A DNA stretch of 32,000 nucleotides from Halomicronema hongdechloris C2206 (GTDB taxonomy: Bacteria > Cyanobacteriota > Cyanobacteriia > Phormidesmidales > Phormidesmidaceae): assembly GCF_002075285.3 (NCBI RefSeq), contig NZ_CP021983.2, positions 1,500,001 to 1,532,000 on the forward strand, written 5' to 3'. A model generated the notes under the pieces. The model did not search any database, had not been told where the DNA came from, and saw only the letters and a list, made by a program, of their open reading frames with translations. Within the stretch, counting starts at the first letter, position 1. Each line of letters opens with the position of its first letter. Position numbers and translations under genes: made by a program. This document shows positions 1,531 to 32,000 of this stretch, in pieces.

Positions 1531-1560
1531 CGAAGAGACATCGGTTTATTTTCGGGACAA

Positions 1561-4174: not shown

Positions 4175-4433
4175 AGCGCCTCCTTACGATTTATCGCGTC
4201 AACTTATGAATCCTGGTGGCTTGGTCAAGATTGCTTCGATTAACGATTGCTCATCCCGACGACTTTTTGCCGTTTCTTTTTAATCTCCTCAGAAAAGCAT
4301 CAGGGCAGCATGGGTCAGAGGTTCTCTTGCTGACCATCCGCTTTCTCCAGCAGTGGAAGGTGACCATTTATGCAGGTGTCAGGATTATTAAATCGCACTG
4401 CGATCGCAGATGACATCCCACATCGGGCAGAGT

Positions 4434-4820: not shown

Positions 4821-4904
4821 GACAGATTAGGGAGAAGGGGGAGGCGTGATGGACTGAACAGGTGACACAATCGACTTGCAATAGAGAAACTGCTCTATTG
4901 CTCA

Positions 4905-6554: not shown

Positions 6555-6645
6555 CGATCAATACAAAAAGGTCCACTCGACAGTTGGGCAAAAATGGGGA
6601 CACCAGCTGGAATGCTCCCCTCGTTCACAGGCATTTACGCCTTCG

Positions 6646-7048: not shown

Positions 7049-7248
7049 ACAGTTGGTTAAGCTTATCTGCTCTACTCTCTAGGCTAGTTAGGGATGGGAG
7101 GCATTGACTTCCGTCGGAAGGGGCTGTTGGTTTCTGTCACTGGATAGACTAATCGGAGCATCGCCCACCTTCCCCTTGCAATGGGTCAGGCGCTAGACGA
7201 CAATATGAAGGCGCTTAATGAGTGTCGTTGGGCATGGACTGACCCCCC

Positions 7249-15056: not shown

Positions 15057-17123
15057 ATGGTCTCTGTCCCAACCATCTACTTTGCGTCCCTGCCGCCGGG
15101 GGATCTAATGAAAGCGATGACCTTGCTAGACCTGTTAGATCGAGCCTGCGATCGCACCCCCCATGATCAGGCCATCGGCCACTGGCAGCAGGGAGCCTGG
15201 CGGTTCCTGTCTAATCAGGCCCTGCGTACCGCTGCCGAAGAGGTGGCGTTGGGGTTGCACCAGGTGGGGCTACAGCGAGGAGACCGGGTGGCCCTGGTCA
15301 TGCACAGCCATGTCGACTTTGCGATCGCAGATCTAGGCTGTCTGCTGGCCGGGGTGGTGGACGTGCCCATCGACTTGACCCAGACCATCGAAAACATCCT
15401 GTTCATTGTGCAACATACCGAGGCCAAGGCCCTAATTATCTCGGACTTGGACCTGCTATATCAGCTGTTGCCCTACGTCTGGGAAGCCCCCAGTCTGCAA
15501 ACGGTGGTGGTGGCCCAGGTGCCGGAACCATGGGGGGAGGTGCGGCGGGGATTAATGGCAGCGGGAGACGGGGCTGATATTGGGCCGCTGCCGCCGCCAC
15601 AAGCCTGCTTGCAGATTCCCCACTTCCTCTGCGATAGCCAAGGGGGGCAGCCCTGTGCGGCGGTGCCATTACCCCAGTGCGTAAGCCTATATGCCCTGAA
15701 AGAGCTGCGGCAGTGGGGGCGCCAAACCTGGTCCCAGCAGGCAGTGATCAGCCTACGCCAGGCCATCCATCCTGAGGATGTGGCCACCATTCTCTACATC
15801 GCCAGCGACGGCTGGCGGCCCCACGGAGTAGTGCTCAGCCATGGCAATATCACTGCCAATGTGCTGGCGGCATTCTCCAGCTATCCGGATCTGCGCCCTG
15901 GTCCAGACGAGGTGGCACTACTGTTTCTGCCCCTGACCCACATTTTTGCCCGGGTATTTTTGTATGGTCACTTAGCCTATGGTCACAGCATTTATCTGTC
16001 CGATGCCAACCATTTGCTGAAACATCTGCGGCGGGTACAGCCCACCATTTTGATCACGGTGCCGCGGCTGTTGGAGAAACTGCACGAGCGCATTCTGGAG
16101 GCAGGCACCCACTTGGGTCGTTTCGATCAGGCGGTGTTGCGCTGGGCCCTGGGCCTGGGGCGACGGTTTCAGCCGGGGCAATCGCCCCAGGGACTCTATC
16201 GTCTGCAGTTGCAATTAGCCACGCGGTTGGTCTTTCATCGCTGGCGGATGTTGTTTGGCGGCCGCTTGCGGGCCTGCATCTGCGGCGGCGCTGCCCTGCG
16301 ACCAGAGCTGACCCGCCTATTTTCGGCGGCGGGAGTGCCAGTGCTGCAGGGCTATGGCCTCACAGAGGCGAGTGGGGTGCTGGCCTATAACCGCGGCCCC
16401 TACCAGCAGGCTGGTACCGTAGGGCTGCCGATTCCAGGGGCAGAGGTGGCCATCGGCGCCGATGGCGAGATCCTGGTGCGGGGGCCGTTTGTCATGCCGG
16501 GCTACTACCGGGATCCAGAAGCAACCGGCCAGGTCCTGGAGCCCGACGGCTGGCTGCATACGGGAGACTTAGGCAGCCTCTCCCCGGAGGGATTGCTCAC
16601 CATTACCGGGGTGAAAAAAGCCCGCTTCAAACTGTCTACCGGCAAGTATGTGTCGCCCCAGCCCTTGGAGGCCGAGATGATGCGATCGCAGCTGGTGGCC
16701 CATGCCATTGCCGTCGGCGCCAACCATAAGTTTTGCGGCATGTTGATTGTGCCAAATTGGGCCGTTCTCGCAGACCATGCCCAAGAGTGGGACCTGGATT
16801 TAAGCCAGCCCGATCGCTGTCGCCAGTCTCGCCTGCTCGGGATTTACCAGCGCCTGATCGATGCCGCTAACTGTCATCTACCCTACTGGTCTACAGTGCG
16901 CAGATTTCGGCTATTAGCGACCGAGTTGACCCGAGAAAACGGCCTGCTGCGGCCAGACGGCCAGGTAGACCGGCAGGCCGTCTGGAGACACTTTGCCACC
17001 GAGATTGCCGAGTTGTATGGGGACCAACCCATGCCTGAGGACCAGGCAGGAGATGAGATATCGACAGCAGATGCATCGACCCTCGGGGCCGAGCCTGTCC
17101 GGTGTATGCGCGAACATCGTTAA
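15057..17123 (+). CDS. Long-chain acyl-CoA synthetase-like AMP-dependent ligase (degenerate P-loop motif)
   Basis: Adenylate-forming core motifs are present: LFLPLTHIF, LQGYGLTEASGV, WLHTGDLG and GVKKARFKLSTGKYVSP. The expected YTSGTTGxPKG motif reads YIASDGWRPHG. The likely start is the ATG at 15108 (MKAMTLLDLLDRA), preceded by GGGGGA. Confidence 0.8.
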   Translation: MVSVPTIYFASLPPGDLMKAMTLLDLLDRACDRTPHDQAIGHWQQGAWRFLSNQALRTAAEEVALGLHQVGLQRGDRVALVMHSHVDFAIADLGCLLAGVVDVPIDLTQTIENILFIVQHTEAKALIISDLDLLYQLLPYVWEAPSLQTVVVAQVPEPWGEVRRGLMAAGDGADIGPLPPPQACLQIPHFLCDSQGGQPCAAVPLPQCVSLYALKELRQWGRQTWSQQAVISLRQAIHPEDVATILYIASDGWRPHGVVLSHGNITANVLAAFSSYPDLRPGPDEVALLFLPLTHIFARVFLYGHLAYGHSIYLSDANHLLKHLRRVQPTILITVPRLLEKLHERILEAGTHLGRFDQAVLRWALGLGRRFQPGQSPQGLYRLQLQLATRLVFHRWRMLFGGRLRACICGGAALRPELTRLFSAAGVPVLQGYGLTEASGVLAYNRGPYQQAGTVGLPIPGAEVAIGADGEILVRGPFVMPGYYRDPEATGQVLEPDGWLHTGDLGSLSPEGLLTITGVKKARFKLSTGKYVSPQPLEAEMMRSQLVAHAIAVGANHKFCGMLIVPNWAVLADHAQEWDLDLSQPDRCRQSRLLGIYQRLIDAANCHLPYWSTVRRFRLLATELTRENGLLRPDGQVDRQAVWRHFATEIAELYGDQPMPEDQAGDEISTADASTLGAEPVRCMREHR

Positions 17124-17129
17124 TGGGTC

Positions 17130-19316
17130 ATGGAGGACATCACCATGCATAAGCCATTCCGTACTGCCGCCGTGCTGGGGGCCGGGGTCATGGGGGCGCA
17201 GATTGCCGCCCATCTGGCCAATGCCGGTCTGACGGTGCACCTGCTGGACTTGCCAGGGAAGTCAGAACATCCCAATGACCTGGTGGAAGCGGCCTTCCAG
17301 AAGGCTAAAACCATGTCGCCGCCGATTTTCTACAGCCAGCAGGCGATGCAGCGGGTGATCCTGGGCAACTATGCCCAGCACTTCCAGCGCCTGGCCCAGG
17401 TGGACTGGGTGATCGAAGCGGTGGTGGAAAATCTGACGGTGAAGCAGGAATTGATGGCACGGCTGGAAAAAACCGTGGCGGCAGACGCGGTGATCTCCAC
17501 CAATACCAGTGGCCTGTCGATTCGGGCCATCGCCCGGGGCCGCTCCCAGAGCTTCCGCCGGCGGTTTTTGGGCACCCATTTCTTTAACCCACCTCGCTAT
17601 TTGAAGTTATTGGAACTGATTCCCACCGCTGACACCGAGCCGCAGCTGGTCGAGCGCCTGGCTAAGTTTAGCCGCTTGCGCCTAGGCAAGGGCATCGTGG
17701 TGGCCAAGGACACTCCCAACTTCATCGCCAACCGCATCGGCGTGTTTGTCTCCATGCTGGGGATTCGGGCCTTTACCGAGGGCGACTACACCATTGAGGA
17801 GATCGACACCCTCACGGGCACCCTGGTGGGGCGGCCCAAGTCGGCTACCTTCCGCACCGCCGATCTGGTGGGGCTGGATACCTTGCTGTACGTGGCTGAT
17901 AACCTCTACGCGGCCATCCCCCAGGATGAGCGCCGGCAGTGGTTCCAGATGCCAGAGCTATGCCGCCAGCTGGTGGAAACCGGTAGCCTCGGGGCCAAGT
18001 CGGGTCAGGGCTTCTACAAGAAGGTGGCTGGGGAAATTCGCTCCCTCAATCCCGACACCTTTGGCTATGAGGCACCCCGACCAATGCGGCTGGGCAATTT
18101 GGACACTATCGAGCAGCAGCCGGATCTGGGAGACCGGCTGCGCAGCCTCTACCGCCATCGGAGCCGAGCCGGTGACTTCTGCCGCCACTTGACCTTGGAA
18201 ACCTTGGCCTACAGCGCCAACCGGATTCCAGAAATTACCGATGACCCTAGGGCCATTGACCAAGCCCTGTGCTGGGGCTTTGGCTGGCAGTTGGGTCCCT
18301 TTCAGATCTGGGATGCCCTGGGATTTGACCTGGTGATTGAGGATATGCGCATGGCCGGGCTGTCCTTGCCAGCCTGGATCGAGACCATGCAGACCCGGGG
18401 GGCGACGGGCTTCTATGGGCCTGGCCCCAGTGTCTACCGGCCAGGAGAGGGCTATGTGGCCTGGCAGAAACCCGTCGATGAGCTGCACTTGGCTGAGATG
18501 ACGGCGGCTTCTCAAGCGACTCTCTGGCACAACCGTGAGGCCGCCCTGCTGGATCTGGGGGATGGGGTGGCGCTGCTGGAGTTTCGCTCTAAGGCCAATA
18601 CCCTCAGCACTCAGGTGATCGAGGGACTGGAGATGGCCCTGACGTGGCTGGCCAGCCACGATGATTACCACGGTTTGGTGATCGGCAATGAGGGGCCGAA
18701 CTTCTGCGTCGGCATCAACCTGGCGGAGGTGGGCAAGATCGCCCAGTGGGACAATCTGAATCCGTTTAGTCGCACCACGGTGCGAATCGCACAACTCCTG
18801 AGCCGCTTCCAAACCCTGATGCAGCAGATTCACTATTTCCCCAAGCCGATCGTGGCCGCCATTCAGGGGGGGGTCCTAGGAGGGGGGTGCGAGCTAGCCA
18901 TGGCCTGTCCCCAGGTGGTAGCCGCCGCCGAGACCTATATGGGCCTGGTGGAACTAGGTGGGCCTGATCCCGGCCGGGGGCGGCCTAATGGGCCTGCCCG
19001 CTGGGCTGCTAACCGGGCGATCACGCAGCATGCCAGCGATATTCTGCCCTGGCTGCAGCAGGCCTTTAAGACCGTGGGCATGGCTACCGTGGCCACTAGC
19101 GCCTACGAAGCCCAGGCGCTGGGATTCCTGAACCCCCAGGCTCAGGTGGTGATCAACAGTGACCGCCGCCTGTATGTGGCCAAGCAGGCAGTGCTTTGCC
19201 TGCATCACCGCGGCTATGCCCACCGCCGCGGCAGCCGATTCCGGTGCTGGGCAACCGGCCCGACCACCCTGGAGCACATGGCCTATGTGATGTACGAGGG
19301 CGGTTACATCAAGTGA
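17130..19316 (+). CDS. fadN: FadN-type bifunctional 3-hydroxyacyl-CoA dehydrogenase (N-terminal) / enoyl-CoA hydratase (C-terminal), frame-disrupted near the 3' end
   Basis: Rossmann motif AVLGAGVMGAQIAAHLANAG, HAD core THFFNPPRYLKLLELIP and DTPNFIANRIG, and ECH part KPIVAAIQGGVLGGGCELAMA...ETYMGLVELG. The ATG at 17145, preceded by GGAGGA, is the likely start. Conserved motifs near 18958-18996 and 19220-19258 are encoded out of frame. The stop at 19314-19316 is created by a 1-nt frame change, and the true C-terminus continues to 19506. Confidence 0.85.
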   Translation: MEDITMHKPFRTAAVLGAGVMGAQIAAHLANAGLTVHLLDLPGKSEHPNDLVEAAFQKAKTMSPPIFYSQQAMQRVILGNYAQHFQRLAQVDWVIEAVVENLTVKQELMARLEKTVAADAVISTNTSGLSIRAIARGRSQSFRRRFLGTHFFNPPRYLKLLELIPTADTEPQLVERLAKFSRLRLGKGIVVAKDTPNFIANRIGVFVSMLGIRAFTEGDYTIEEIDTLTGTLVGRPKSATFRTADLVGLDTLLYVADNLYAAIPQDERRQWFQMPELCRQLVETGSLGAKSGQGFYKKVAGEIRSLNPDTFGYEAPRPMRLGNLDTIEQQPDLGDRLRSLYRHRSRAGDFCRHLTLETLAYSANRIPEITDDPRAIDQALCWGFGWQLGPFQIWDALGFDLVIEDMRMAGLSLPAWIETMQTRGATGFYGPGPSVYRPGEGYVAWQKPVDELHLAEMTAASQATLWHNREAALLDLGDGVALLEFRSKANTLSTQVIEGLEMALTWLASHDDYHGLVIGNEGPNFCVGINLAEVGKIAQWDNLNPFSRTTVRIAQLLSRFQTLMQQIHYFPKPIVAAIQGGVLGGGCELAMACPQVVAAAETYMGLVELGGPDPGRGRPNGPARWAANRAITQHASDILPWLQQAFKTVGMATVATSAYEAQALGFLNPQAQVVINSDRRLYVAKQAVLCLHHRGYAHRRGSRFRCWATGPTTLEHMAYVMYEGGYIK

Positions 19317-19506
19317 CTACGACCGGGCCCTGGCCAATCGTCTGGCCTATGTCCTCAGCGGTGGCGATCTGACGGTGCCGGCATCGGTAGACGAGGACTA
19401 TCTGCTGGGCCTGGAGCGGGATAATTTTCTGCCCCTCATCGACGAGGCCAAGACCAAGGAGCGGATCCTGCATCTGCTGAAGACGAAGAAGCCGTTGAGG
19501 AATTGA
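19312..19506 (+). pseudogene. Detached C-terminal 64 codons of the FadN-type gene (frame +1 relative to the upstream ORF)
   Basis: This frame reads SDYDRALANRLAYVLSGGDLTVPASVDEDYLLGLERDNFLPLIDEAKTKERILHLLKTKKPLRN-stop. That is the canonical FadN/FadB C-terminal tail (…YLLxLERExF…KTxxRIxxxLxTxKPLRN). It ends 2 nt before the thiolase ATG at 19509. Confidence 0.65.
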
Positions 19507-19548
19507 CCATGGAAACCGCCTATATCGTCAAGCGCCGTCCGCACGGCG

Positions 19549-20697
19549 GTGGGCAAGGCCCCCCGGGGCACCCTGCGCCATACCCGCCCGCAGGATTTGG
19601 CCGTGGCAGCGGTGCGGGGAGCCTTGGCCCGAGTGCCGCAGCTGGTGTCTAACCAGATCGAGGATGTGATCCTGGGCTGTGCCATGCCCGAGGCAGAGCA
19701 GGGGTACAACCTGGGCCGGTTAGTAGCCCTGGGGGCGGGGTTGCCGGAGTCTGTCCCCGGGTGCACGGTGAACCGGCTGTGTTCCTCCGGGTTGCAGACC
19801 ATTGCCATGGCCACCCAGGCGGTGGCCTGGGGCCAGGCCCAGGTGATCGTAGCCGGTGGGGTCGAGTCCATGAGCCTGATTCCCATGGGAGGGCACCAGT
19901 TTTCTCCCCATGCCGAGCTGTTTGAGAAGCTGCCCCAGGCCTACATCACCATGGGCCTGACGGCAGAGAAGGTGGCGGAGCAGTTTCAGATTCCCCGCCC
20001 GGACCAGGATGCCTTCGGGTTGCGATCGCATCAGCGAGCCCTGGCCGCCATCGCCGCCGGTAAATTCAAGGACGAAATCGTCCCCGTCACCGTGCGAGAG
20101 ACCCACTACATCGATGGGCAACCTCAGACCCAGGACATCATCTTCGACACCGATGAAGGCCCCCGGACCGACACCAGCCTGGAGGCCCTGGCCCAGTTGC
20201 AGCCGGTGTTTAAGGCCAATGGCACCGTGACTGCGGGTACCTCGTCCCAGATGTCCGATGGAGCTGCCGCCACCCTGGTCATGGGGGAAAGCGCCATGGA
20301 GGCCCTGGGGATTCAGCCCCTGGCCCGACTGCTGGCCTTTGCCGTGGTGGGGGTTGCCCCTGAGATCATGGGCATTGGTCCGGTGATGGCGGTGCCCCAG
20401 GCCCTAGAGCAGGCGGGCTTGACTCTGGCCGACATCGACCTGATCGAACTGAATGAGGCCTTCGCCAGCCAGGCCCTGGCCGTGATCAAAGAGCTAGGCC
20501 TGAACTCGGAGATCGTCAACGTCAACGGTGGCGCCATCGCCCTGGGCCATCCCCTCGGTTGCACTGGGGCCAAACTCACTGCCACTTTGCTGCATGAGAT
20601 GCGCCGCCGTCGGGTCCGCTACGGCCTAGTCACCATGTGTGTCGGTGGCGGCATGGGGGCGGCAGGCATCTTTGAAAATCTGGCTCTGGAGGGTTAA
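19549..20697 (+). CDS. fadA: Acetyl-CoA C-acyltransferase (3-ketoacyl-CoA thiolase); N-terminal 13 codons are displaced into another frame
   Basis: NRLCSSGLQ (active-site Cys), NEAFASQ and [11 protein letters not shown]...CVGGGMG. The ATG at 19509 gives METAYIV, after which one extra A at 19530/19531 shifts the frame. Without it the sequence reads [22 protein letters not shown], the standard thiolase N-terminus. Confidence 0.9.
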
Positions 20698-20699
20698 CC

Positions 20700-23087
20700 A
20701 TGGTGCTGTTGATTGGGCTCAGTCTACTGCTGGCGTTGGTGCTGGTGTTCACCGTCCCGTTCTTACGGCGGCCCCTGATCAGCCGCTGGATTATGCGGGG
20801 AATTCGGGCCATGAAGCTACTGCCCCGCATTTCCGACACCGAGCGAGCCGCCATCGAAGCCGGCAATGTCTGGATAGAAGGGGAGTTTTTCACCGGCCAG
20901 CCCAATTTCGGGCGCATGTTGCAAGAGCCCTATCCAGAGTTGCCGCCAGCGGTGCAGGCATTTTTGCAGGGGCCGGTGGAGCAGGTCTGTGAGCTGGCTA
21001 GCGATTGGCAGATCTACCAGGGTAAGGACCTGCCACCTCAGGTCTGGCAGTACCTGAAGCAAGAGAAATTCTTCGGGTTGATGATTCCAGAGGAGTTTGG
21101 TGGCCTGGGCTTTTCCAACCTGGCCTACAGCGCCGTCATGGTGAAGCTGGCATCCCGCTCCTTTTCCTATGTGGCCACGGTGGGGGTGGCCAATTCTCTG
21201 GGGCCGGCCAAATTGCTGCTGCGCTACGGCACCCCGGAGCAAAAGGCCCGCTACCTGCCCCGGTTGGCCATCGGCGAGGAGATCCCCTGCTTTGCCTTGA
21301 CCGAACCCATGGCAGGCTCCGATGCGGCCAATCTATCGTCCCGCAGGCGAAGTATTCCAAGCAGAAGACGGTCAGCTCTACCTGCGGCTGAACTGGCAGA
21401 AGCGTTATATCACCCTGGGTGCGAGTTCGCAACTCTGTTGGGCCTGGCCTTCCGTCTCTATGATCCGGAGAATCTACTGGGCAAAGGCACCGAGTGGGGC
21501 ATTACCTGTGCCCTGGTGCCCACGCACCTGCCGGGGGTGCATCTGGATCGCCGCCACGACCCCATGGGGGTGCCCTTCTTCAACTCCCCCACCGAGGGCC
21601 ATGATGTCATCCTGCCAGTTGATCAGATTATTGGCGGCGTGGCGCAGGCCGGTCAGGGCTGGAAGATGTTAATGCAGACCTTGGCTGCCGGTCGCGGCAT
21701 CAGCTTCCCGGCTACCTGCAGTGGGGTGGCTCAGTTGGTGAGCCGAGTGACCAGTGCCCACGCCGTGGTGCGACAGCAGTTTGGCCTCTCCATTGGTCGC
21801 TTCGAGGGGATTGAGGCCCCCCTGGCCCGGATTGCCGGCCTCACCTATATCATTGATGCCACTCGCCATTACACCTGTGGGGCAGTCGACAAGGGGGAAC
21901 AGCCCGCGGTGGTTAGTGCGATCGCAAAATATACCACCACAGAACTGGCCCGCCAGATCATCAACGACGGCATGGATATCATGGGCGGGTCTGGCATCTG
22001 TCGTGGTCCCCACAACCTGCTGGCCCATATCTACACCGCTACCCCCATTTCCATCACCGTGGAAGGAGCCAACATCCTCACCCGTACCCTGATGATCTTT
22101 GGTCAGGGCGCCATCCGCTGCCATCCCTACCTCTACGGTGAGATCCAGGCCCTGGAGGCTGGCGATCTAGTCAACTTCGATCGACTGTTGTGGCGACACT
22201 TGGGCACCTTCTTGATGAATGGCCTACGCAGCCTGGGCCTGAGCCTGACCCAGGGGCAGCTTGTGTCCCCGCCAGTGCCAGGCCCCACCGCCCGCTACTA
22301 CCGCAAACTGACCTGGGCCGCCGCCCTGTTTGCCTGGCTCACCGATATTGCCCTGCTAGGCTACGGCGGTCGCCTCAAGCGCCAGGAAAATCTCACCGGT
22401 CGCTTCGCCGACGTTCTGTCCTGGCTCTACCTGGCCACCGCCACCCTACGTCGCTACCATGCCGAGGGCCAGCGCTCCGAGGCCCTGCCCCTGGTGGAGT
22501 GGTCCCTGCAGCATAGCCTGGCTCAGATCCAACAGGCCTGCCAAGGGGTGCTGAGCAACCTAGAGGTACCCATCGTCGGTAGCCTACTGCGCTGGACGCT
22601 ACTGCCCTGGTTGCGCCTCAATCCCATCGGTACCCCACCAGCCGATGAGCTAGGGAGTAACGTGGCTCAGGCCTTGCAACGGCCTGGAACCCTACGCCAG
22701 CACCTAACCGCAGGCATCTACGTCCCCTCAGACCCAGAGCAGGCCCTGGGCCGTTTGGACCATACCCTAGCCCAGGTACATCAAGCTGAGGCCATTCTGC
22801 GGAAGGTCAAAGGGGCAATAGCGGTCGGTCAATTACCTGCAGGCAAACCCCTACAGCGTCTGGACACTGCCCACGCCCAGCATCTAATTACTACCGCCGA
22901 ATATGCCTTAGTCAAGGAAGCGGCAGCCCTACGTTTGGCAGCAATTCAAGTGGATGCCTTCACCCTGGAGGAATACGAAGCCATTGGCATACCAGCAAAG
23001 CAGGGCAAGGCTGATTCAACGCTATTGACGACTTTTGCCAACACCTCGAACTGCAATGGCAACGAGCTTGCGCCAGTGACCAGATGA
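20700..23087 (+). CDS. fadE: FadE-type large acyl-CoA dehydrogenase (N-terminal TM anchor, ACAD core, DUF1974-like C-terminus), with an internally out-of-frame segment
   Basis: 795 aa. Collinear with E. coli FadE as I remember it: GQGWKMLMQTLAAGRGISFPA, ITVEGANILTRTLMIFGQGAIRCHPY and GGRLKRQENLTGRFADVLSWLYLA. Between about 21335 and 21427 the conserved block ...LRLNWQKRYITLGA is encoded in frame +1 (ORF 21322..21672). Confidence 0.85.
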   Translation: MVLLIGLSLLLALVLVFTVPFLRRPLISRWIMRGIRAMKLLPRISDTERAAIEAGNVWIEGEFFTGQPNFGRMLQEPYPELPPAVQAFLQGPVEQVCELASDWQIYQGKDLPPQVWQYLKQEKFFGLMIPEEFGGLGFSNLAYSAVMVKLASRSFSYVATVGVANSLGPAKLLLRYGTPEQKARYLPRLAIGEEIPCFALTEPMAGSDAANLSSRRRSIPSRRRSALPAAELAEALYHPGCEFATLLGLAFRLYDPENLLGKGTEWGITCALVPTHLPGVHLDRRHDPMGVPFFNSPTEGHDVILPVDQIIGGVAQAGQGWKMLMQTLAAGRGISFPATCSGVAQLVSRVTSAHAVVRQQFGLSIGRFEGIEAPLARIAGLTYIIDATRHYTCGAVDKGEQPAVVSAIAKYTTTELARQIINDGMDIMGGSGICRGPHNLLAHIYTATPISITVEGANILTRTLMIFGQGAIRCHPYLYGEIQALEAGDLVNFDRLLWRHLGTFLMNGLRSLGLSLTQGQLVSPPVPGPTARYYRKLTWAAALFAWLTDIALLGYGGRLKRQENLTGRFADVLSWLYLATATLRRYHAEGQRSEALPLVEWSLQHSLAQIQQACQGVLSNLEVPIVGSLLRWTLLPWLRLNPIGTPPADELGSNVAQALQRPGTLRQHLTAGIYVPSDPEQALGRLDHTLAQVHQAEAILRKVKGAIAVGQLPAGKPLQRLDTAHAQHLITTAEYALVKEAAALRLAAIQVDAFTLEEYEAIGIPAKQGKADSTLLTTFANTSNCNGNELAPVTR

Positions 23088-23790: not shown

Positions 23791-24046
23791 TTAACCTAAG
23801 TAGTCTGTCAGCACTGAATTTTGGGCGCAACGAATTTCAAGGCGACCTCTAGACAGTATTTGCAGAAAACGGCAACTCCAAAATTGAAGCTTGACGTAAC
23901 ACTAGGTCGTCTATGACGATGAAGTTACTTCGCTTTGAGTAACCGCTTCTACACAAACGAAGTCGGCTTTCGCTTCGCTAATCTCTGAAAAAGCGGCTCG
24001 GATAACTGCAGGTTTTGCCTATATTCGAGTATAAAACTACAGACAC

Positions 24047-24733
24047 CTAAATCTGTCTGGACTGTCCATTAGAGGTAAGCTTCCTTCGAATAGAGGCCAA
24101 GCAAACAGTCCAGAAGAAAATGCAAATATTTAGGACAGCCAATAGCTTTGTGCCATCCTCTAACATGGCAGGAGTACCTTTTCCAGGTATAGGCAAGAGA
24201 TCTGAAATTCCCGACATGACTAGTAAAAGTGCTGAGAAAAGAAGTAACAAGTATGGAGTCGATAACAGAAACTTACGAAATGAAATTGAATAGCCAACTA
24301 GCAAGAAACCATATATCAAGTACGAAACTAATTTAGGAATTCCAATAAACACCTTTAGTATTAGCGTTAAACGAAATATATCATCTAGCACAAACAGGCC
24401 AAGTAAAAGGGAAGAAAAAAATGAAAATCGTTTCAAAAGATAAGCTTCTCGACTTAATGAAGCAAGAATTGCATAAGTAAAGCTGCAGATAGTTAGCGCT
24501 ATACACCACAAGACTTCAGAGACATTCGTAAAAAATCCATAGAGAGGGTAAGTATCCGTAAAAAAGTCAGCAAACAATGTACCGACGGAATGGCCACGAT
24601 CACCGCCACCAGTTTTTGCATAGAGACCAATAGCGAGAAAAATACCTACCCAGAAAAAGTTTAGGAGTAAGAAGATCTTACTCTCTCGAAAGAAAGCAAC
24701 ATATCTTTGACCATACTTTCTTTCCACAAGCAA
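24047..24733 (-). CDS. Hypothetical polytopic membrane protein (about 6 TM)
   Basis: 228-aa ORF with a TTG start and repeated hydrophobic segments (IFLLLNFFWVGIFLAIGLY, VLWCIALTICSFTYAILA, FSSLLLGLFVL, LVSYLIYGFLLVGYSI, YLLLLFSALLLVMSGI, LLAVLNICIFFWTVCLA). No family recognised. Confidence 0.5.
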   Translation of the reverse strand: MLVERKYGQRYVAFFRESKIFLLLNFFWVGIFLAIGLYAKTGGGDRGHSVGTLFADFFTDTYPLYGFFTNVSEVLWCIALTICSFTYAILASLSREAYLLKRFSFFSSLLLGLFVLDDIFRLTLILKVFIGIPKLVSYLIYGFLLVGYSISFRKFLLSTPYLLLLFSALLLVMSGISDLLPIPGKGTPAMLEDGTKLLAVLNICIFFWTVCLASIRRKLTSNGQSRQI

Positions 24734-24764
24734 AAAGTTAAAAATGAAATAAGACTACGGTGAG

Positions 24765-24799
24765 GCGTCATCAGATATCTATGCGTTATCAGATATCTA
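24765..24799. promoter_or_regulatory. Tandem 17-mer (18-bp period), each copy containing the palindrome AGATATCT; candidate operator upstream of the membrane-protein gene
   Basis: GCGTCATCAGATATCTA (24765-24781) and GCGTTATCAGATATCTA (24783-24799) differ at one position. They lie 32-66 nt upstream of the start at 24733 on the minus strand. Function is inferred only. Confidence 0.3.
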
Positions 24800-24939
24800 A
24801 AAATCTCAAATCCAACTCCTTCGAAGCAAGAAAACCTATACTAGGTCTAGCATAATCTCAGGTAATATTCTAGAGTTGACTTCACAAAGTTTCATTCCAC
24901 CCAACCCAAACAAACAACCCAAAGCACATAATGTTTTGT

Positions 24940-25704
24940 CTATTCTGCGGAGACACTGTAAAGGCCAAATTCACTTCGGAACTTAGCAGTTAACGGCCGA
25001 TAATTGAACAGACAAGCCTTAAATCTAAAAGCAATATGATCTGGGAAAATTATTTTCCTGAAGTTTCTATTATTATCACTGTGCATAACACTATAGATTG
25101 AGCCGATGAAAGGTAGAGGAAGTAGAGGAGTTCCCTGTTTAAGCATAATTTCTACAATATGTTTATGACTATTATGGTAATAACTATAGTCTATAAAATC
25201 ATCATCCGTACTAGGTGGAAGTTTGTGCAAATCGTATCGAATAATATTACTAGTCCCGCACCATTCATGAAAGTTTTTCCTATTCAAGTAGAGAACCTTT
25301 TCACCTTCAGGGTATACATAACCTTGCCTAAAGAACCAGCCATAGTTATCCGGATAACTTGAAACAAAGTTTGCCAGATGCTTACTCACACAATCATCAG
25401 CATCAACGTACATAGTATGAGTTGGATTAAATTTTGCTGCATGCAATAAACCAGCTAAATGCTTACGTCTTCTATCTACTCGCTGTACTTCAACACTATC
25501 TGGAATTGGGAAATCAACTGGAAGATATGTTAGGTTAGCATGCTCAAATTCAACTTTTGGCTTCTCATGGCAGACTGCAATGACTCTAAATTGATTTGAG
25601 GTTTGAGAGCATACCGACTTAATTGTTCGCTCAAATAATCCTTCAACAAGTTTCCACGACTTTGACACCTGTGCGCTTTTTATCGCAATTATGAAGACTA
25701 GCAT
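24940..25704 (-). CDS. GT-A-fold glycosyltransferase (GT2-like)
   Basis: 254 aa. The N-terminal beta-strand FIIAIKS is followed by SVCSQTSNQFRVIAVCHE, and there is a DxD motif YVDADDCV. Confidence 0.6.
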   Translation of the reverse strand: MLVFIIAIKSAQVSKSWKLVEGLFERTIKSVCSQTSNQFRVIAVCHEKPKVEFEHANLTYLPVDFPIPDSVEVQRVDRRRKHLAGLLHAAKFNPTHTMYVDADDCVSKHLANFVSSYPDNYGWFFRQGYVYPEGEKVLYLNRKNFHEWCGTSNIIRYDLHKLPPSTDDDFIDYSYYHNSHKHIVEIMLKQGTPLLPLPFIGSIYSVMHSDNNRNFRKIIFPDHIAFRFKACLFNYRPLTAKFRSEFGLYSVSAE

Positions 25705-26175
25705 AACTCAAATTTTGCAACTGCTCAACTGGGTTGACAAATTTAAACCCATTCCAGTAGAAGAGGCAGCAGCTTCCCAAGCATCTTGTATTCACTCAAT
25801 CAACCAAAGCGTAAGGATTTTAGGTGTTTTGATGTCTGGTTTCTCAATAAATTGGATTATCGAGAACATCCTGAAAAGCTCTCTACATAAGAGTTTTGAG
25901 GCAAGAGGGATAGGTGGTTGTGCAATTTCCCAACTCCTTAACATTTAAATGGGACTAATAAGTCAGAGGAAAATGCCTTCGCATCTGTATATTTTGCTTA
26001 TACCCTATGAAAAGGCCAAAACTTCTTATCTGCAAGAATTACAGTTGATTATTAAATACGCGGAAAATGGCAGTTCAATTGCCATTATTTTCTCTCAGTG
26101 AATCATGATGCACTCTCCATCTAAATCTTTAATATACTCATAACCTTATGCGGAATATCAAAATCAAAGCATTAA

Positions 26176-27276
26176 TTAAAAATACTCATTGTGTATATAT
26201 ATATCTTCCCCGTAAAAAAATTTCTTTTCAAAAACCCTGTTTATTCTTAATTTGCTTAAGGCAAGTGATCGATTGATTTTGTAATATTCAAATGCCATAC
26301 GGCTAATAGATAACAAACGCAACTGTTCTATTCGAGAGAATCCATGCCATTCTTGATAAGCTGCTGGAACCACCTTAGATAAAAACTCGCACCAATGTTG
26401 AGTTATTTTTTCATGCTTTATGCCCTGAGCACGAAAATTAGCATTTTCAATCATCCTCTGTCTCAACTCTAAATCATCACGAAGTCGAGTTATAGCGCCA
26501 ATTGTTTCATCTATAGAGGTTACCTCAAGATAGTCAAGCTCACTTTTTCGCTCAGCCCTATATGCTGATTCTGGCCCCAAAATAGCAGGCACACCAGCCA
26601 ACCAAGCATTGTATAGTTTCGACGCAGGTTTCCAAGGATATAGAGTACGTCGCCTAAAATTCCTGACAGCTAAAACAGCATCAATCATTGAGTAATTGCA
26701 CCATAGTTCAGGTTGATTTACTATCTTAAAATTTAGGCCTAACTCGTTAACTTTTTGTAACCATTGATGCTGGCGCAACTCTGGAGCCAAGTTGGTACGA
26801 TCTCTTCCAAAAAAGGCAATATTTTGGAATAAGTCCCCACGTGCAGGGTTTCTTGGCACTAGACCAGATTGAGTCCAAAAAGGAATGAAATAATCTCGCC
26901 AGCATGAGAGAAAAGGATGTCTATGTGTTGTTTGCCTAGGATTCTGCACTACGTGAATCTGAGCAAAAGGATGCCTTATTTTGTCACCCTGCAAACATAT
27001 TAATAATAACTGTTTACCCGGCTTTAAGTTGGATGGAAGTAATGATCGGTGAGAAATCAAAACTCCTACCTCTGGCAAAGTCGATGCCAGCTTGCACGGA
27101 AAGCCAATCTTATTAAGATTCAAATAAGTTTGTAAAGTCCAAGTATATGCACCAGTACCTGCACTAGCATTTTTTATTTTCCCATTTAGCCATGGCCAGA
27201 ATAGATTAACTTTCTCCGGCAAATTCTCTATAAGACTTGTCTCAGGGACATAAAAATAGATAGGAGGAAACGTCAT
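26176..27276 (-). CDS. Uncharacterised protein, possibly a GT-B-like glycosyltransferase
   Basis: 366 aa. The C-terminal half (DAVLAVRNF...WKPASKLYNAWLAGVPAILGPESAYR...YLEVTSIDETIGAITRLRDDLELRQRMIENA) has the look of a GT-B C-terminal Rossmann domain. No diagnostic motif was identified. Confidence 0.4.
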   Translation of the reverse strand: MTFPPIYFYVPETSLIENLPEKVNLFWPWLNGKIKNASAGTGAYTWTLQTYLNLNKIGFPCKLASTLPEVGVLISHRSLLPSNLKPGKQLLLICLQGDKIRHPFAQIHVVQNPRQTTHRHPFLSCWRDYFIPFWTQSGLVPRNPARGDLFQNIAFFGRDRTNLAPELRQHQWLQKVNELGLNFKIVNQPELWCNYSMIDAVLAVRNFRRRTLYPWKPASKLYNAWLAGVPAILGPESAYRAERKSELDYLEVTSIDETIGAITRLRDDLELRQRMIENANFRAQGIKHEKITQHWCEFLSKVVPAAYQEWHGFSRIEQLRLLSISRMAFEYYKINRSLALSKLRINRVFEKKFFYGEDIYIHNEYF

Positions 27277-27481
27277 TGCTCAATTGACTTAACGGCAATA
27301 GCTTTAAGCGGCTGCATAAAAGCTAAACTGATGCTTAGCATATTATCTCATCTAAATCTAGAGTAGCTTCTAAATAACTTTTATGGTAGACAATTGTCCT
27401 TGGTTTTCTTATTAGAACTGCTGGCTTCAACTTAGCAAGTATTTAGATTATTTTCCCTACATAACCGATTTTTTATAGGGT

Positions 27482-28657
27482 TTAGTCCTTTAAGAATGCC
27501 TTAAGTGTTTTGTTAAATTGAGAGAGCTCAAAATGCTTGCAGACTTCCTGGCGTAACCATTCCGGATTATATATTTTCTCATCAGAATATGTGCCTTTAA
27601 GAATTTCTATTAGCCTGGCTGCTATTTCTTCTTCATTGTCTGGATTAACTAGGCATCCAAGCTGGCCATTCAGGAGAGGATCAACTGAGCCATCTTGGTT
27701 TCCCGCTAATACAGGCTTGCCGGCCGCTAATGCTTCTAGATAAACAATCCCAAATCCTTCCCCTTTACTTGGCATGGCAAAAACATCGCACAGGCTATAG
27801 TGGTCGGGCAATTCTTCATCAGGCACAAACCCTGTCAGTGTCACACAATCTTGAATATCAAGCTCACGAATCATCGCTTCAACGCGAGATCGATCATCCC
27901 CTTTACCCACCAGAATATAGTGGACTTTTGGAATTTGTCGACGAATCTTAGGTAGCATCCTTAAGATTGTGTCATAGCCCTTGTAGTATGCGAATTTCTG
28001 CAGGCGTGTAACAGTTAAGATGATAGCCTGCTCAGGCTCTAAGCCATAACGTTCTAAGAGGTAGTGAGGTTTAGACTCAACTTTGAAGCGGCCAGGGTCA
28101 AAGGTATTTGGCAGGACACATATCTTTTTAGGTTCAAGATATCCTTCTGACAAGATGCGATCGCGCGTATAGCGACTAACAGCGATGACGCGCTCTGACC
28201 CTTGTAGCGCTTGTTTATAGGCAGAATTCTGAATATCCCAAGCTTCGATACCGTGCAGCACAATCCAGTACGGAATGTTCAACCATCGATGCAGCCAGTA
28301 GCACAACACGATGTAATAATTGATTTCGGTCGTCACAATGAGGCCAGGACGACGAATTAATGCATTAAAAAGAATAGTGGTGGCTGACAAGATAGTTCGA
28401 AACCGCCGCCGCCAACCATTCGTATCGCAGACTATCTCTCCAAACAGATAGAAACGAGTTTGAGGCAGAAAAGATAAATCATTCGTAGCATTAGCAATGT
28501 TCTGCTCGTATTTAAGAAACACACTGTAGTTGCTCTCAGGGTAAACTTTTTGAATTGCCTGAATTAGATGCGAGGAATAAACTTGTACTCCCCCCCTGAA
28601 TCCAAACAGGTTAGGAGCCAGAACGAAAATATGCTTTGGAGCAGAACAATCTGCCAT
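27482..28657 (-). CDS. GT4-family (GT-B, RfaG/WcaL-like) glycosyltransferase
   Basis: CDVFAMPSKGEGFGIVYLEALAAGKPVLAGNQDGSVDPL is the canonical GT4 E-x7-E region. The N-terminus reads FVLAPNLFGFRGGVQVY. Length 391 aa. Confidence 0.9.
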   Translation of the reverse strand: MADCSAPKHIFVLAPNLFGFRGGVQVYSSHLIQAIQKVYPESNYSVFLKYEQNIANATNDLSFLPQTRFYLFGEIVCDTNGWRRRFRTILSATTILFNALIRRPGLIVTTEINYYIVLCYWLHRWLNIPYWIVLHGIEAWDIQNSAYKQALQGSERVIAVSRYTRDRILSEGYLEPKKICVLPNTFDPGRFKVESKPHYLLERYGLEPEQAIILTVTRLQKFAYYKGYDTILRMLPKIRRQIPKVHYILVGKGDDRSRVEAMIRELDIQDCVTLTGFVPDEELPDHYSLCDVFAMPSKGEGFGIVYLEALAAGKPVLAGNQDGSVDPLLNGQLGCLVNPDNEEEIAARLIEILKGTYSDEKIYNPEWLRQEVCKHFELSQFNKTLKAFLKD

Positions 28658-28669
28658 GAAGCACCTCTA

Positions 28670-30367
28670 TTAAGTTGCAACAGGGATAGAACGCTTAATT
28701 AGAGAACTTCCGTCAAGGTGTCCTGGAATGTCTGCCCCCATTAAATCCAAGACTGTAGGAGCGAGATCAACAGCCTGTCCTTCGGGAAGACTAGAGTTCT
28801 CAGCGATTCCTGGTCCTTTTGCTAGCAGAAAGCCGCGAGATGTATGACCGCCAGGACGATAGTAGGTTAATGGACCAATACGCCCAAAATCAGGACTATC
28901 GATCACGTCTGTAGGTGTGTCGTGCCAGGAAACGACCAGATCAGCGTCGGGACGTTTAAAGTCGCTATAATCACCCTCAGGACGAGTCCGCGCGACTGAC
29001 TTGACGATCGGCTGATCAGTTCTTGCATCAGTCAGTCGGTATAGATATTCGGTCAACTCGTTGCAGATGGACTCATACTCTGAAGGCTTCACAATGCCAT
29101 CGCGATCACGTCCTGCTAAGTTAATACGGATAAATCCTTCAGCAACACCAGGTAAGGCAAATGCTTTCATTTGTGGCCACAAACGCTGATACCACATATT
29201 GGGCATCCAAGCTAAATCTTCTCCTTGCTTCAGAAGTTCATACGGGGAGGTTAATGCGGGATTAGGACCGGAATTCAGAAGTGAATCAAACTTACTCGGC
29301 ATCCACTTCTGTAGAAAACGCTTGATCGGGTTAGGATCGAAGCGCTGTTGCCAGACTTCTCCTGGCCATGTCTTCCGCTTTGGATTCGCGAATTGCTTAG
29401 GTGGTGTAGTCCCTAGCTTACCAGGAGCCAGTCCCACCTTCCCTGGGAAATTATATCGATACAAAAGTTCTGGCAAAAAGGCCATGTTGCATAGGTCAGC
29501 CATATTATTGGTGATGCCGTGAACCCCAAATACCAAAACATAGGTATCCTCAGAGATATCAGCCAGAATCTCTCCAACAGCTTTGTCGACATTTCTCATC
29601 GCTTCCACCATGGGATTTATCGAAGTATGAGATACTTTGGCCGAGTGGTGGAGTGGGTGATCTACTTCGCTGAAGTGTAAAAGATCATGCCCAGCAGAAT
29701 GAGTTTCACCAAAGACAGCAATAAACAAATCCCAAGAATCTTTGTTCAAGAAATCACGGCATACTTGAGCTCGTGTTGACACACTATCTTGAACGGATTT
29801 TTGTACCCACTCTACATAGTTTGGGTTCCACCAAACACCAAAGTCCCGTTTGAATAAAGGATTACGACCGTACTTTTTATTAATTTCTGGGAGAACACTA
29901 TCAGGTGTTGAATAGGGATCCATGTGGGAACCACTGTGGCTACCCCAAACTGAGATTTGAATACCATTGAAGTCTTCACTGACGCCAGACATTGGAACAT
30001 CAAACAGACCTACCTTATACTCAGCTCCGAGATCATAAAATGCCTGAAACTCCTGATAATCGTATCCTAGAGATTCGCCTTTATGGTTTCTATCTTGAGT
30101 AATTTGGTAATTCTCTGGATGGTACTTTGCGGTATCCCAATAGCCTGTTTTGCTGGGATAGCAACCTGTTGAGAAGATCACCCAGTTTCGCTCAGAGCAA
30201 ATTGTATCCGTTGCAGTCCCACATAAATCTACTTGAGTTTTGAGGCGTCCATAAGCGCCGCGATTACGTAACCCGCTCAAATTTGGTAGATGTCCTTGGG
30301 ATATTAAACGCTCAAGCAACACTGGGTCTGCTGCATCTAAACCAATAGCAATTACTTTTTTCTTCAT
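28670..30367 (-). CDS. Alkaline-phosphatase-superfamily enzyme (type I phosphodiesterase/nucleotide pyrophosphatase-like)
   Basis: MKKKVIAIGLDAADPVLLERLISQGHLPNLSGLRNRG is a typical family N-terminus with a metal-ligand Asp. Also present: FSTGCYPSKTG, VFGETHSAGHD, VFGVHG and YYRPGGHTSRGFLLAKGPGI. It is separated from the GT4 gene by 12 nt. Confidence 0.72.
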   Translation of the reverse strand: MKKKVIAIGLDAADPVLLERLISQGHLPNLSGLRNRGAYGRLKTQVDLCGTATDTICSERNWVIFSTGCYPSKTGYWDTAKYHPENYQITQDRNHKGESLGYDYQEFQAFYDLGAEYKVGLFDVPMSGVSEDFNGIQISVWGSHSGSHMDPYSTPDSVLPEINKKYGRNPLFKRDFGVWWNPNYVEWVQKSVQDSVSTRAQVCRDFLNKDSWDLFIAVFGETHSAGHDLLHFSEVDHPLHHSAKVSHTSINPMVEAMRNVDKAVGEILADISEDTYVLVFGVHGITNNMADLCNMAFLPELLYRYNFPGKVGLAPGKLGTTPPKQFANPKRKTWPGEVWQQRFDPNPIKRFLQKWMPSKFDSLLNSGPNPALTSPYELLKQGEDLAWMPNMWYQRLWPQMKAFALPGVAEGFIRINLAGRDRDGIVKPSEYESICNELTEYLYRLTDARTDQPIVKSVARTRPEGDYSDFKRPDADLVVSWHDTPTDVIDSPDFGRIGPLTYYRPGGHTSRGFLLAKGPGIAENSSLPEGQAVDLAPTVLDLMGADIPGHLDGSSLIKRSIPVAT

Positions 30368-30616
30368 AATATTCTCCTTATCAATTTCATTAACTCAAGA
30401 AGCATTAAGCTGCCATTGGGAGTTTATGCCTATAAACATAAATAGTTGAAGTTCTTGGCAACCAAAACGCTCTGTAGAAGTCTGGCAAATAAGTTGATAG
30501 ATAATCGCACTGTATTTATTCATCCTGGAGTTATCGCTTACTTACGAATTTAAATCACTTTCAAATCACTGCTCTCAATTAAAGTCTAATAATTCCGCAG
30601 TCTTCATGATCTACCT

Positions 30617-32000
30617 TCAGCTTACATCTCTAAAGCAATTAGCCCAAAATAAATTCTCTAATGGCAGGGGCTTCTTAAGTTGATATCCCTGAACATAAGG
30701 TATACCTAGTCTTTTGGCAACATCTAACATCAATTTCTTCTCAATTCCTTTGGCAATTATGGTGATTTTGGATGAATTGGCATGCTCAATAATATTCCTA
30801 AATTCTTGCAATCTAACTAGGCTTTTCATATGCAATTCCAATGACAAAAAACTGAGTTTAAAGTGGTAAATGCTAGTTTCTGGTAGCTGTCGGAGAAGCC
30901 CAGGATCACGAAAATCATCTAGAATAATGTTACAACCTATCTCTTCGATTTCGTGGGTCAAGCGAGCGACCGCATCTGGATAAGTTTTCGCCGCATGTTC
31001 AGGGATCTCAATCCAAAAATTCTCTGCAGGAAATTGATGTCGATTCAATAAATCAGAAAGAAAGACAGAGAAATACTGATCGCGTATGCTGGCCTGTGAC
31101 AGATTGATAGAGTAGTTTGCCTGACAGTTTTTTTGAGGTGATGATCTTTTGATTGAGTTGAATAGCGTTCGGATTACCCAGCGGTCAATTGTTTTGGTTA
31201 GTTCATAGTACTCAGCAATTGGCATGAAATCTTTTGGTAACAGAAGTCTCGTTGTAGGGGAATCGGAATTAAGTGTACAGGATAAGAGCCTGACTAATAC
31301 TTCATAGTTGAGTGGATCGTTTAGGCAATTATCAGTCGAGAAAATCGGTTGCTGGTATAAGCAGAAAAGATTATTCTCAAATCCCGACTCAATCTGATCA
31401 ATGACTGTCTTGCATTTATCCTTGCTAAGGCCACTCAAGGTAGTCTTACCGTAGTCTTTCAATCCCTTCCGAGCAATGAAAATTGGGCTAGATAATGTGC
31501 TAAAAAGGTATTCTCTTTCGCAGGCAAACAACAAATTTTTGTAAGGCTCTCGTTTTTCTCTAATTATATGCAACAATAACTTGCGTAAGTCATTAACTAT
31601 ATATAAAGGTAGCAATAAAGGTCGCTTCCAAGCGCTTGTACTTAATATGCGAATATAAAAGCGGCTTAGCCCAACACAACGTATTAAGGTAACTAAATAC
31701 TCTTTCTGAAGCCGTCCTTTAGGAATTTGATGGTAAACGACCATGGCTGGGTTATACCAAACTTCCCAGCCCGCTTTTCGGATATATAAGATGGCTTCTA
31801 AGTCTTCGCTGGCAAGGCCAGCAGCCTTACCTTTATTATTCAAGAATAATCGCCTAGGAACGCTTTGGAGCCACGCGTCTCGACGAACAACGAGTCCTGC
31901 TCCTGGTGGCAGAACCTTCGTATGTTGGTCGTAACGATGAGGATTTGGTCCTCGTTCGACAATGGCTAAGAAACAGGCAATATGTTTAAATTCCTCGGGT
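30617..32000 (-). CDS. Hps-type GT2 glycosyltransferase (C-terminal part visible) fused to a C-terminal EAL domain; 5' end lies beyond the window
   Basis: The listed ORF start at 31843 is an internal TTG, and the frame stays open to nt 32000. The upstream part reads PEEFKHIACFLAIVERGPNPHRYDQHTKVLPPGAGLVVRRDAWLQSVPRRLFLNNKGKAAGLASEDLEAILYIRKAGWEVWYNPAMVVYHQIPKGRL, a GT2/HpsE-like C-terminal half. EAL motifs follow: LYQQPIF, YEVLVRL, LLPKDFMPIAEYYELTKTIDRWV, SINLS, WIEIPE, ILDDFRDPG, FKLS, IIAKGIE and YVQGYQL. Confidence 0.8.
   Translation of the reverse strand, partial: PEEFKHIACFLAIVERGPNPHRYDQHTKVLPPGAGLVVRRDAWLQSVPRRLFLNNKGKAAGLASEDLEAILYIRKAGWEVWYNPAMVVYHQIPKGRLQKEYLVTLIRCVGLSRFYIRILSTSAWKRPLLLPLYIVNDLRKLLLHIIREKREPYKNLLFACEREYLFSTLSSPIFIARKGLKDYGKTTLSGLSKDKCKTVIDQIESGFENNLFCLYQQPIFSTDNCLNDPLNYEVLVRLLSCTLNSDSPTTRLLLPKDFMPIAEYYELTKTIDRWVIRTLFNSIKRSSPQKNCQANYSINLSQASIRDQYFSVFLSDLLNRHQFPAENFWIEIPEHAAKTYPDAVARLTHEIEEIGCNIILDDFRDPGLLRQLPETSIYHFKLSFLSLELHMKSLVRLQEFRNIIEHANSSKITIIAKGIEKKLMLDVAKRLGIPYVQGYQLKKPLPLENLFWANCFRDVS

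Follow-up and report, generated by a model that had tools for sequence, protein, structure and literature searches.

We analysed a 32,000-nucleotide stretch of the Halomicronema hongdechloris C2206 genome (the window; contig NZ_CP021983.2, positions 1,500,001 to 1,532,000), the right end of which carries hpsE-EAL, a gene that joins a family 2 glycosyltransferase (GT2) of the HpsE type to an EAL domain, a domain of the cyclic di-GMP (c-di-GMP) phosphodiesterase type. The minus-strand frame running from 31999 to 30617 translates into 460 codons without a stop, while the remaining two frames across 30617-31999 contain many; the 5' 141 codons lie past the right edge of the window. In a protein search the translated fragment matched, at 100% identity, residues 142-601 of P0001, a 601-residue protein of the same strain that is named 'EAL domain-containing protein/glycosyl transferase' at NCBI, and hpsE-EAL therefore does not die just past nucleotide 32000. 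All the peptides quoted in the original prediction for this locus, which was made from the nucleotide sequence without database searches, were located in the frame: PPGAGLVVRRDAWLQSVP, ASEDLEAILYIRKAGWEVWYNPAMVVYHQIP, LLLPLYIVNDLRKLLLHII, YEVLVR, SINLS and WIEIPE, as well as ILDDFRDPG, FKLS, KGIE and VQGY. The proposal that a GT2 and an EAL domain share one open reading frame (ORF) is upheld by the open 460-codon frame and by the Pfam and NCBIfam matches, and following the ORF to the right of the window led to the recorded 601-residue protein, with no stop or frameshift ending the GT2 part beyond nucleotide 32000. The GT2-EAL fusion is genuine and its gene is intact. The features of the locus are collected in Table 1.

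Table 1. Features of the window, with positions counted from its first nucleotide
Feature	Position	Strand	Evidence or remark
3' 1383 nucleotides of hpsE-EAL	30617..31999	-	Codons 142-601 and stop of the 601-residue protein P0001
C-terminal half of the GT-A/GT2 catalytic domain, residues 142-235	31718..31999	-	Pfam Glyco_tranf_2_3, Glycos_transf_2
Helical connector, residues 236-340	31403..31717	-	AlphaFold2 helices; up to residue 315 in the HpsE model
EAL domain, residues 343-585	30668..31396	-	Pfam, translation, Foldseek, family conservation
Codon of Lys558, at the catalytic-base/M2-ligand Glu position (first E of EGVE)	30749-30751	-	Alignment, translation
Stop codon of hpsE-EAL, TAA/TAG-type	30617-30619	-	
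AlkP-superfamily protein (PF01663), 565 residues, cytoplasmic	28670..30367	-	Pfam 45.9 bits, cut-off 23; downstream of hpsE-EAL
GT4 glycosyltransferase, 391 residues	27482..28657	-	Pfam Glycos_transf_1 119.7 bits; third gene of the conserved block
Low-GC island with exopolysaccharide-type genes	24000..32000		Composition profiles
Island ORFs of 228, 254 and 366 residues	24047-27276	-	No significant family match, or a very weak one
Beta-oxidation-type cluster	15057-23087	+	GC 0.60-0.64; complete
CRP-family regulator	10890-11618	+	cNMP_binding and HTH_Crp_2
Glucan-metabolism-like neighbourhood	44-9060		
Alpha-amylase-family genes	44-1147, 4905-6554, 7249-9060		
glgC	2885-4174		

HpsE belongs to the Wzx/Wzy-type 'hormogonium polysaccharide' (HPS) pathway, the source of the slime used in type-IV-pilus gliding. 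Residues 10-315 of P0001 match the HpsE equivalog model, NCBIfam NF038302, over model positions 1-306 of 307 with 450 bits (cut-off 300), and the window fragment alone scores 219 bits, its residues 1-174 corresponding to model positions 133-306 of 307. Pfam places Glycos_transf_2 at residues 13-147 of P0001 and Glyco_tranf_2_3 at residues 12-235. For conservation we used a family alignment of the 120 best clusters at 90% identity, each of them a GT2-EAL protein with a length of about 580-700 residues. Residues E206, D207 and E209 of the motif G202-L-A-S-E206-D207-L-E209, which is encoded inside the window, are found in all 120 members, and the DxD motif D103-D104-D105, present in P0001 and coded outside the window, in 119. 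With the full-length model matched above its cut-off and the catalytic motifs intact, the glycosyltransferase (GT) part is assigned to the HpsE family.

An AlphaFold2 model of P0001, made from a 30-sequence family alignment, has a mean predicted local distance difference test score (pLDDT) of 86 and a predicted template modelling score of 0.87, and consists of a GT-A domain (residues 10-235), four long helices and an EAL barrel (353-585). The GT and EAL domains are joined by continuous helices (240-261, 264-291, 297-329 and 334-349; pLDDT about 76-93) that are amphipathic, with a hydrophobic moment of up to 0.55. A 'hydrophobic linker' had been described between the two domains. The stretch itself is present and falls in the second connector helix, but it is not a separate linker, being part of HpsE's own conserved C-terminal helical region, and it is not transmembrane. 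No transmembrane segment is predicted in P0001, where the top Kyte-Doolittle 19-residue window reaches 1.40 against a threshold of 1.6; that maximum, together with the position of the stretch inside the HpsE model, rules it out as a membrane anchor. A Pfam scan of P0001 gave no match to PilZ or GGDEF.

The C-terminal part of the protein is a complete EAL domain, as had been predicted. The model check proposed for it returned a clear EAL score (PF00563; 108.8 bits, gathering score 31.3) over model positions 3-236 of 236 and fragment residues 202-444. In a Foldseek comparison with the PDB, EAL domains rank at the top (RbdA/PA0861, FimX, MorA and RocR; TM-score 0.8-0.86 on the target), with E values of 1e-16 to 1e-18 and TM-scores of 0.83-0.86 to the EAL domains of RbdA, FimX and MorA. 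P0001 keeps the residues of the c-di-GMP-binding and first metal (M1) site, namely Q358, E374, R378, N440, E472, D502, K522, E561 and Q578, and it also has E475 and D503, so that ExxE and both Asp of DD are present. The original prediction was therefore right about the retained Glu of EAL, Arg, Asn, ExxE, DD, Lys and Gln, and also about the Asp of K-x-D, which is Ser here (K-L-S).

It was mistaken in taking the Glu of 'KGIE' for the catalytic one. We called the base position from HMMER alignments to four experimentally active phosphodiesterases, in which 'IIAKGIEKK' of P0001 aligns to 'vvaEGVEtk' of DosP, 'viaEGVEsq' of MorA, 'ivaEGVEtp' of PA3825 and 'iaEFVEt' of RbdA. The Glu in question is the second, non-catalytic E of EGVE, and the base position is occupied by Lys558. 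This residue lies 36 positions after K522 and 20 before Q578, a spacing that is the same in what we take to be the corresponding residues of RocR, K316/E352/Q372 (numbering of Rao et al. 2008). Loop 6 also departs from the active enzymes: in P0001 it is DDFRDPGLLRQL, aligned as 'DDFRD--PGLL' against 'DDFGTGYSSL' in DosP and MorA, 2-4 residues shorter than in those two proteins and without the DFG(T/A)GYSS motif. As judged from these alignments, two features that define an active class-I EAL phosphodiesterase, the EGVE base and a canonical loop 6, are missing from the domain.

The same picture extends across the 120 clusters of the family alignment. Q358, R378, N440, K522 and Q578 are present in all of them, E374 in 119, D502 in 117 and E472 in 110, so that E374, R378, N440, E472, D502, K522 and Q578 are conserved at 92-100%; E561 is Glu in 108 clusters and Asp in another 10, and D413 and G579, the latter directly after Q578, are further retained or invariant residues. 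Conservation is lower for D503, a ligand of the second metal site, M2 (67 of 120), for the loop-6 anchor E475 (55 of 120) and for the Asp of K-x-D (14 of 120), and loop 6 is highly variable. Position 558 is Lys in 102 clusters and Glu in five (P0080, P0086, P0090, P0107 and P0111, of Dapis/Okeania type). These five lack E472 and D503, and different sub-lineages thus appear to have lost catalysis in different ways; the full catalytic set occurs in none of the 120 clusters. Nei-Gojobori ratios of nonsynonymous to synonymous substitution rates (dN/dS), taken only from pairs with unsaturated dS, are 0.08-0.36 for the EAL domain and 0.06-0.32 for the GT domain, and the EAL domain is under purifying selection. 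Conservation that falls on the ligand contacts, and not on the residues needed only for chemistry, is what we read as the mark of a receptor derived from an enzyme.

With one genome scanned for each GTDB species, at least 525 HpsE relatives were obtained, and the domain architecture was scored on the best 80. Single-ORF fusions of 585-680 residues make up 38 of these, and include proteins from Leptolyngbya sp. PCC 6406, PCC 7375 and Heron Island J, Phormidesmis, Laspinema, Phormidium pseudopriestleyi, Oscillatoria, Okeania, Dapis, Almyronema and Sphaerothrix, as well as a Xenococcaceae metagenome-assembled genome (MAG) and many marine MAGs. The remaining 42 are HpsE proteins that lack an EAL domain and measure about 320 residues; they come from Nostoc, Calothrix, Fischerella, Scytonema, Coleofasciculus, Symploca and others, and among the best 80 no fusion was found in Nostocales. 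In a neighbour-joining tree of the GT and helical parts, 39 fused and 42 unfused proteins are split by one bipartition, which indicates that the fusion is monophyletic and arose in a single event, after which it was retained.

When 1.84 billion representatives at 50% identity were scanned exhaustively with HMMER, about 12 fused clusters came first and unfused HpsE-like GT2s after them. The further fusions seen were GT2-GT2, GT2-PhyH, GT2-pentapeptide and GT2-RTX, and no fusion to another signalling domain was seen among the HpsE-like GT2 relatives scanned. Three relatives, P0222, P0149 and P0212, account for C-terminal fusions to a PhyH dioxygenase domain, pentapeptide repeats and RTX repeats. 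The GT2-EAL fusion is carried by at least 38 species genomes and at least 120 clusters at 90% identity, and both domains are already given by NCBI and JGI automatic annotation. Full-text literature searches found no paper on HpsE with EAL, on GT-EAL proteins, or on hormogonium polysaccharide linked to c-di-GMP. The earlier statement that no characterised GT-EAL example was known agrees with these searches. Of the two points that together would have gone against the original prediction, a widespread architecture and a function already described, only the first was found: the fusion is not rare and is indeed widespread, but in the literature searched its function is undescribed.

The composition of the surrounding DNA bears out the suggestion of a foreign-looking exopolysaccharide island. 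The GC fraction steps from about 0.62 to about 0.37 at about 23.9-24.1 kb, which marks the left edge of the island, and then stays at 0.33-0.46 up to the window end, so that the island spans at least 8 kb and its right boundary falls outside the window; the DNA to its left has a GC fraction of 0.58-0.64. Individual island genes range from 0.37 to 0.46, compared with 0.61 for fadE. The window has no tRNA gene that could mark a tRNA-linked integration site, and the part of the island available showed no integrase. No c-di-GMP riboswitch or other RNA element in the island matched Rfam at the gathering score, promoter and terminator signals were not above shuffled expectation, and no terminator was found between hpsE-EAL and the next gene.

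That next gene encodes the PF01663 protein, a family described as 'type I phosphodiesterase/nucleotide pyrophosphatase', for which we found no NCBIfam model and no PDB sequence match. Among 80 loci, 19 (16 fused, 3 unfused) have a homologue of it placed after HpsE-family GT2 genes, and the 565-residue protein is an unnamed conserved partner of HpsE-type genes. The order hpsE-EAL, PF01663, GT4 is repeated in locus L002 and in L081 (1330-6315), a contig of the closest relative, P0002, from Logan assembly SRR28089850. Identity to the window is 86.5% (L081) and 77% (L002) for the PF01663 protein and 79.5% and 75%, respectively, for the GT4 protein. The HpsE-EAL protein of L081 is 57% identical overall (GT 73.5%, helices 52%, EAL 51%), so that hpsE-EAL either diverges much faster than its block neighbours there or has been exchanged. 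Upstream in L081 there is only an unrelated glutamate-5-kinase-like fragment.

The usual order in fused loci is an Orn/Lys-decarboxylase-like gene, cbiT, hpsE-EAL, one or two unfused HpsE-family GT2 genes, a PF01663 gene (about 555 residues) and a hexapeptide acetyltransferase gene, and the unfused GT2 genes downstream of the fused gene score 447-485 bits on NF038302. In Nostocales loci the pseudopilin genes hpsA-D lie upstream of the HpsE gene. No hpsA-D genes were found near the fused relatives among the fused loci examined, and the 8 kb downstream of hpsE-EAL in the window contain neither hpsA-D nor a second HpsE-type GT2. One of the three island ORFs left without a clear family, that of 228 residues, recurs near HpsE-EAL in five loci, L001, L002, L028 and L030 among them.

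To the left of the island the window holds other genes of separate interest. The beta-oxidation-type cluster encodes an acyl-CoA ligase (688 residues), a thiolase (382 residues), a FadB-like 3-hydroxyacyl-CoA dehydrogenase/enoyl-CoA hydratase (728 residues) and a FadE-type acyl-CoA dehydrogenase (795 residues; 940 bits on NF007000). Beta-oxidation is generally regarded as absent from cyanobacteria. The CRP-family regulator lies a few kilobases upstream of this cluster, and in the glucan-metabolism-like neighbourhood glgC and a DJ-1/PfpI gene are flanked by the three alpha-amylase-family genes.

Taken together, the residue pattern suggests that the degenerate EAL domain is probably a c-di-GMP sensor that controls the HpsE-type glycosyltransferase and does not carry out useful hydrolysis. 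The domain would bind c-di-GMP and would not hydrolyse it at a useful rate; a single metal would probably sit at the retained M1 site, and Lys558 in place of the second metal. Occupancy of the site would then act allosterically on the GT-A domain or on partners by way of the conserved helical connector, so that polysaccharide synthesis would track the cellular c-di-GMP level directly. Lacking the catalytic base, the domain most likely acts by sensing c-di-GMP and not by destroying it. The original prediction had proposed coupling to local hydrolysis or to sensing; the kept ligand contacts favour sensing, and Lys558 and loop 6 weaken the case for hydrolysis. The effect of c-di-GMP could be of either sign, since the background is compatible with activation or inhibition: a diguanylate cyclase suppresses motility in Leptolyngbya boryana (PMC10581220), HPS is needed for gliding motility (PMC12288463, PMC10581220), and HfsJ, a non-processive GT, is allosterically activated by c-di-GMP (PMC8846402). 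A more specific proposal, to which we give a little less than an even chance, is that the pseudo-EAL domain has c-di-GMP sensing as its dedicated role and acts as a direct switch on the GT to which it is fused, a cytoplasmic, non-processive enzyme of the Wzx/Wzy pathway; this would represent a new class of c-di-GMP effector. On this proposal the conserved Lys558 would take the place of the second metal and hold the phosphate in a clamp, so that what was an enzyme-substrate complex would be fixed as a complex of receptor and ligand.

Several readings compete with a sensor role. One of them takes the fusion for an artefact of assembly or annotation, or for a pseudogene decaying in the H. hongdechloris genome. 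A 5' end outside the window and the position of the gene in a low-GC, probably acquired island might suggest this, but it is effectively refuted already by the single ORFs of 585-680 residues in 38 independent species genomes, the full 601-residue ORF of strain C2206, the end-to-end alignment to relatives at 97-98% coverage, the GT2 catalytic motifs, all intact, and the purifying selection on both the GT and the EAL domains. An active c-di-GMP phosphodiesterase, acting as a local sink or trigger enzyme that keeps c-di-GMP low at the site of polysaccharide synthesis, is more credible, although we still consider it unlikely. P0001 retains E374, R378, N440, E472, E475, D502, D503, K522 and Q578, and its closest solved homologue in both sequence and fold is the active RbdA/PA0861, whose loop 6, DDFCAGMSSF, is likewise non-canonical. 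Against activity stand the replacement of the catalytic-base/M2-ligand Glu by Lys558 in P0001 and by Lys in most of the family, with no cluster holding the full set; a loop 6 that is short by 2-4 residues and without G(T/A)GYSS; and the Ser in place of the K-x-D Asp. The published classification rule of the Römling laboratory also predicts EAL domains without the conserved EGVE catalytic base to be inactive as phosphodiesterases (PMC12900916). Less likely again is an EAL domain blind to nucleotides, serving as a structural, oligomerisation or protein-docking module in the manner of the YdiV/BluF/CsrD-type EAL-like domains. Such a role would suit a domain that is the least conserved region of the protein, that diverges faster than the neighbouring genes and whose loop 6, in canonical EAL domains the element of dimerisation and regulation, varies strongly. 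However, the invariant residues are nucleotide and metal contacts (Q358, E374, R378, D413, N440, D502, K522 and Q578-G579) and form no surface patch, and dN/dS is well below 1.

Some of the observations also weigh against the sensor that we favour. P0001 keeps E374, N440, E472, E475, D502, D503 and K522, that is, a complete M1 site and DD motif, and the domain could thus retain residual or conditional hydrolysis of c-di-GMP. The K-x-D alignment is ambiguous by two residues, the MorA alignment being shifted. The EAL domain is the fastest-evolving part of the family, with a mean pairwise identity of 37% compared with 68% for the GT domain and 54% for the helices, and its 51% identity to the L081 protein compares with 80-87% for the neighbouring genes. 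On the side of the output, the HPS assignment is made from family membership, and the polysaccharide made may not be motility slime, because hpsA-D are missing from the 8 kb downstream and the island is apparently acquired.

The nearest known counterpart of the GT part is HpsE of Nostoc punctiforme (Npun_F0070), which shares with it the GT-A domain and C-terminal helical region over the whole of the NF038302 model. In relatives the fused gene comes first in a tandem array of HpsE-family GT2 genes, the place that hpsE has in hpsEFG. The canonical HpsE of about 320 residues differs in being without EAL, as in the 42 unfused loci, and the fused form is a separate monophyletic clade; HpsE of Nostocales adjoins hpsA-D and the fused loci do not, and unlike the canonical setting, the window gene lies in a low-GC island beside AlkP-like and GT4 genes. 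A requirement for hormogonium or gliding polysaccharide and for motility is known only for N. punctiforme hpsEFG (PMC10581220).

For the EAL part, FimX and RbdA are the most informative comparisons. FimX is among the best structural matches (TM-score 0.83-0.84), and its NYEVL(V/L)RLL, IDRWVI and QGY stretches recur almost verbatim in the fusion family, as does the second E of EGVE. Both proteins are without a catalytic base, the position being Pro in FimX and Lys in the fusion protein, but the fusion family keeps M1, whose ligands are replaced in FimX (H for N, Q for E, SQ for DD). The fusion protein shows the residue pattern of a FimX/LapD-type receptor, having lost the base Glu, the KxD Asp and loop 6 and kept Q358, E374, R378, D413, N440, K522, E561 and Q578. 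FimX and LapD are GGDEF-EAL tandems that act on pili or on a periplasmic protease, while the EAL domain of the fusion is joined directly to an enzyme; they share the logic of output through an attached or partner module, the fusion EAL being a predicted binder. The RbdA (PA0861) EAL domain, an active phosphodiesterase (PDB 8pps, 5xgb), is the best match in the PDB both in sequence (E 2.9e-23) and in fold. It has in common with the fusion protein the E, R, N, ExxE, DD, K and Q residues and a non-canonical loop 6, but it carries E-F-V-E with the catalytic Glu and K-I-D where the fusion protein has K-G-I-E, K-L-S and a shorter loop 6.

Coupling of a c-di-GMP-binding element to a polysaccharide GT is the logic shared with BcsA-PilZ, HfsJ of Caulobacter, PelD/PelF and BgsA. 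The receptor module in the fusion is an EAL domain, in contrast to the PilZ domain, I-site GGDEF domain or intrinsic site of these systems, and the enzyme is a soluble or peripheral non-processive GT-A without transmembrane segments, in contrast to the membrane-embedded synthase of the BcsA type. The two marks of a PilZ-gated processive GT2, a PilZ match and a hydropathy window at the transmembrane threshold, are both missing from P0001. In the BcsA-PilZ cellulose synthase a polysaccharide GT2 is coupled directly to its c-di-GMP-binding element (PMC10118264).

Control of exopolysaccharide synthesis by c-di-GMP is known to operate through PilZ domains, I-site GGDEF domains, GIL domains and intrinsic sites. 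A receptor of the EAL type that is part of the glycosyltransferase polypeptide is undescribed in the literature searched, which also reports no molecular link between c-di-GMP and HPS in cyanobacteria. In these organisms c-di-GMP suppresses motility and HPS is required for gliding (PMC10581220, PMC12288463), and the fusion provides a directly testable link between the two, carried by at least 38 species. The finding is not a dramatic one, since the domains are ordinary, the architecture is already annotated automatically by NCBI and JGI, and the function is inferred. If the favoured reading is true, however, the fusion would be a clean natural conversion of an enzyme to a receptor, by Glu to Lys at the base position with the M1 site intact, and on the more specific proposal above it would also be a one-protein link from second messenger to gliding slime in non-heterocystous filamentous cyanobacteria of the Leptolyngbya, Phormidesmis, Oscillatoria and Okeania types.

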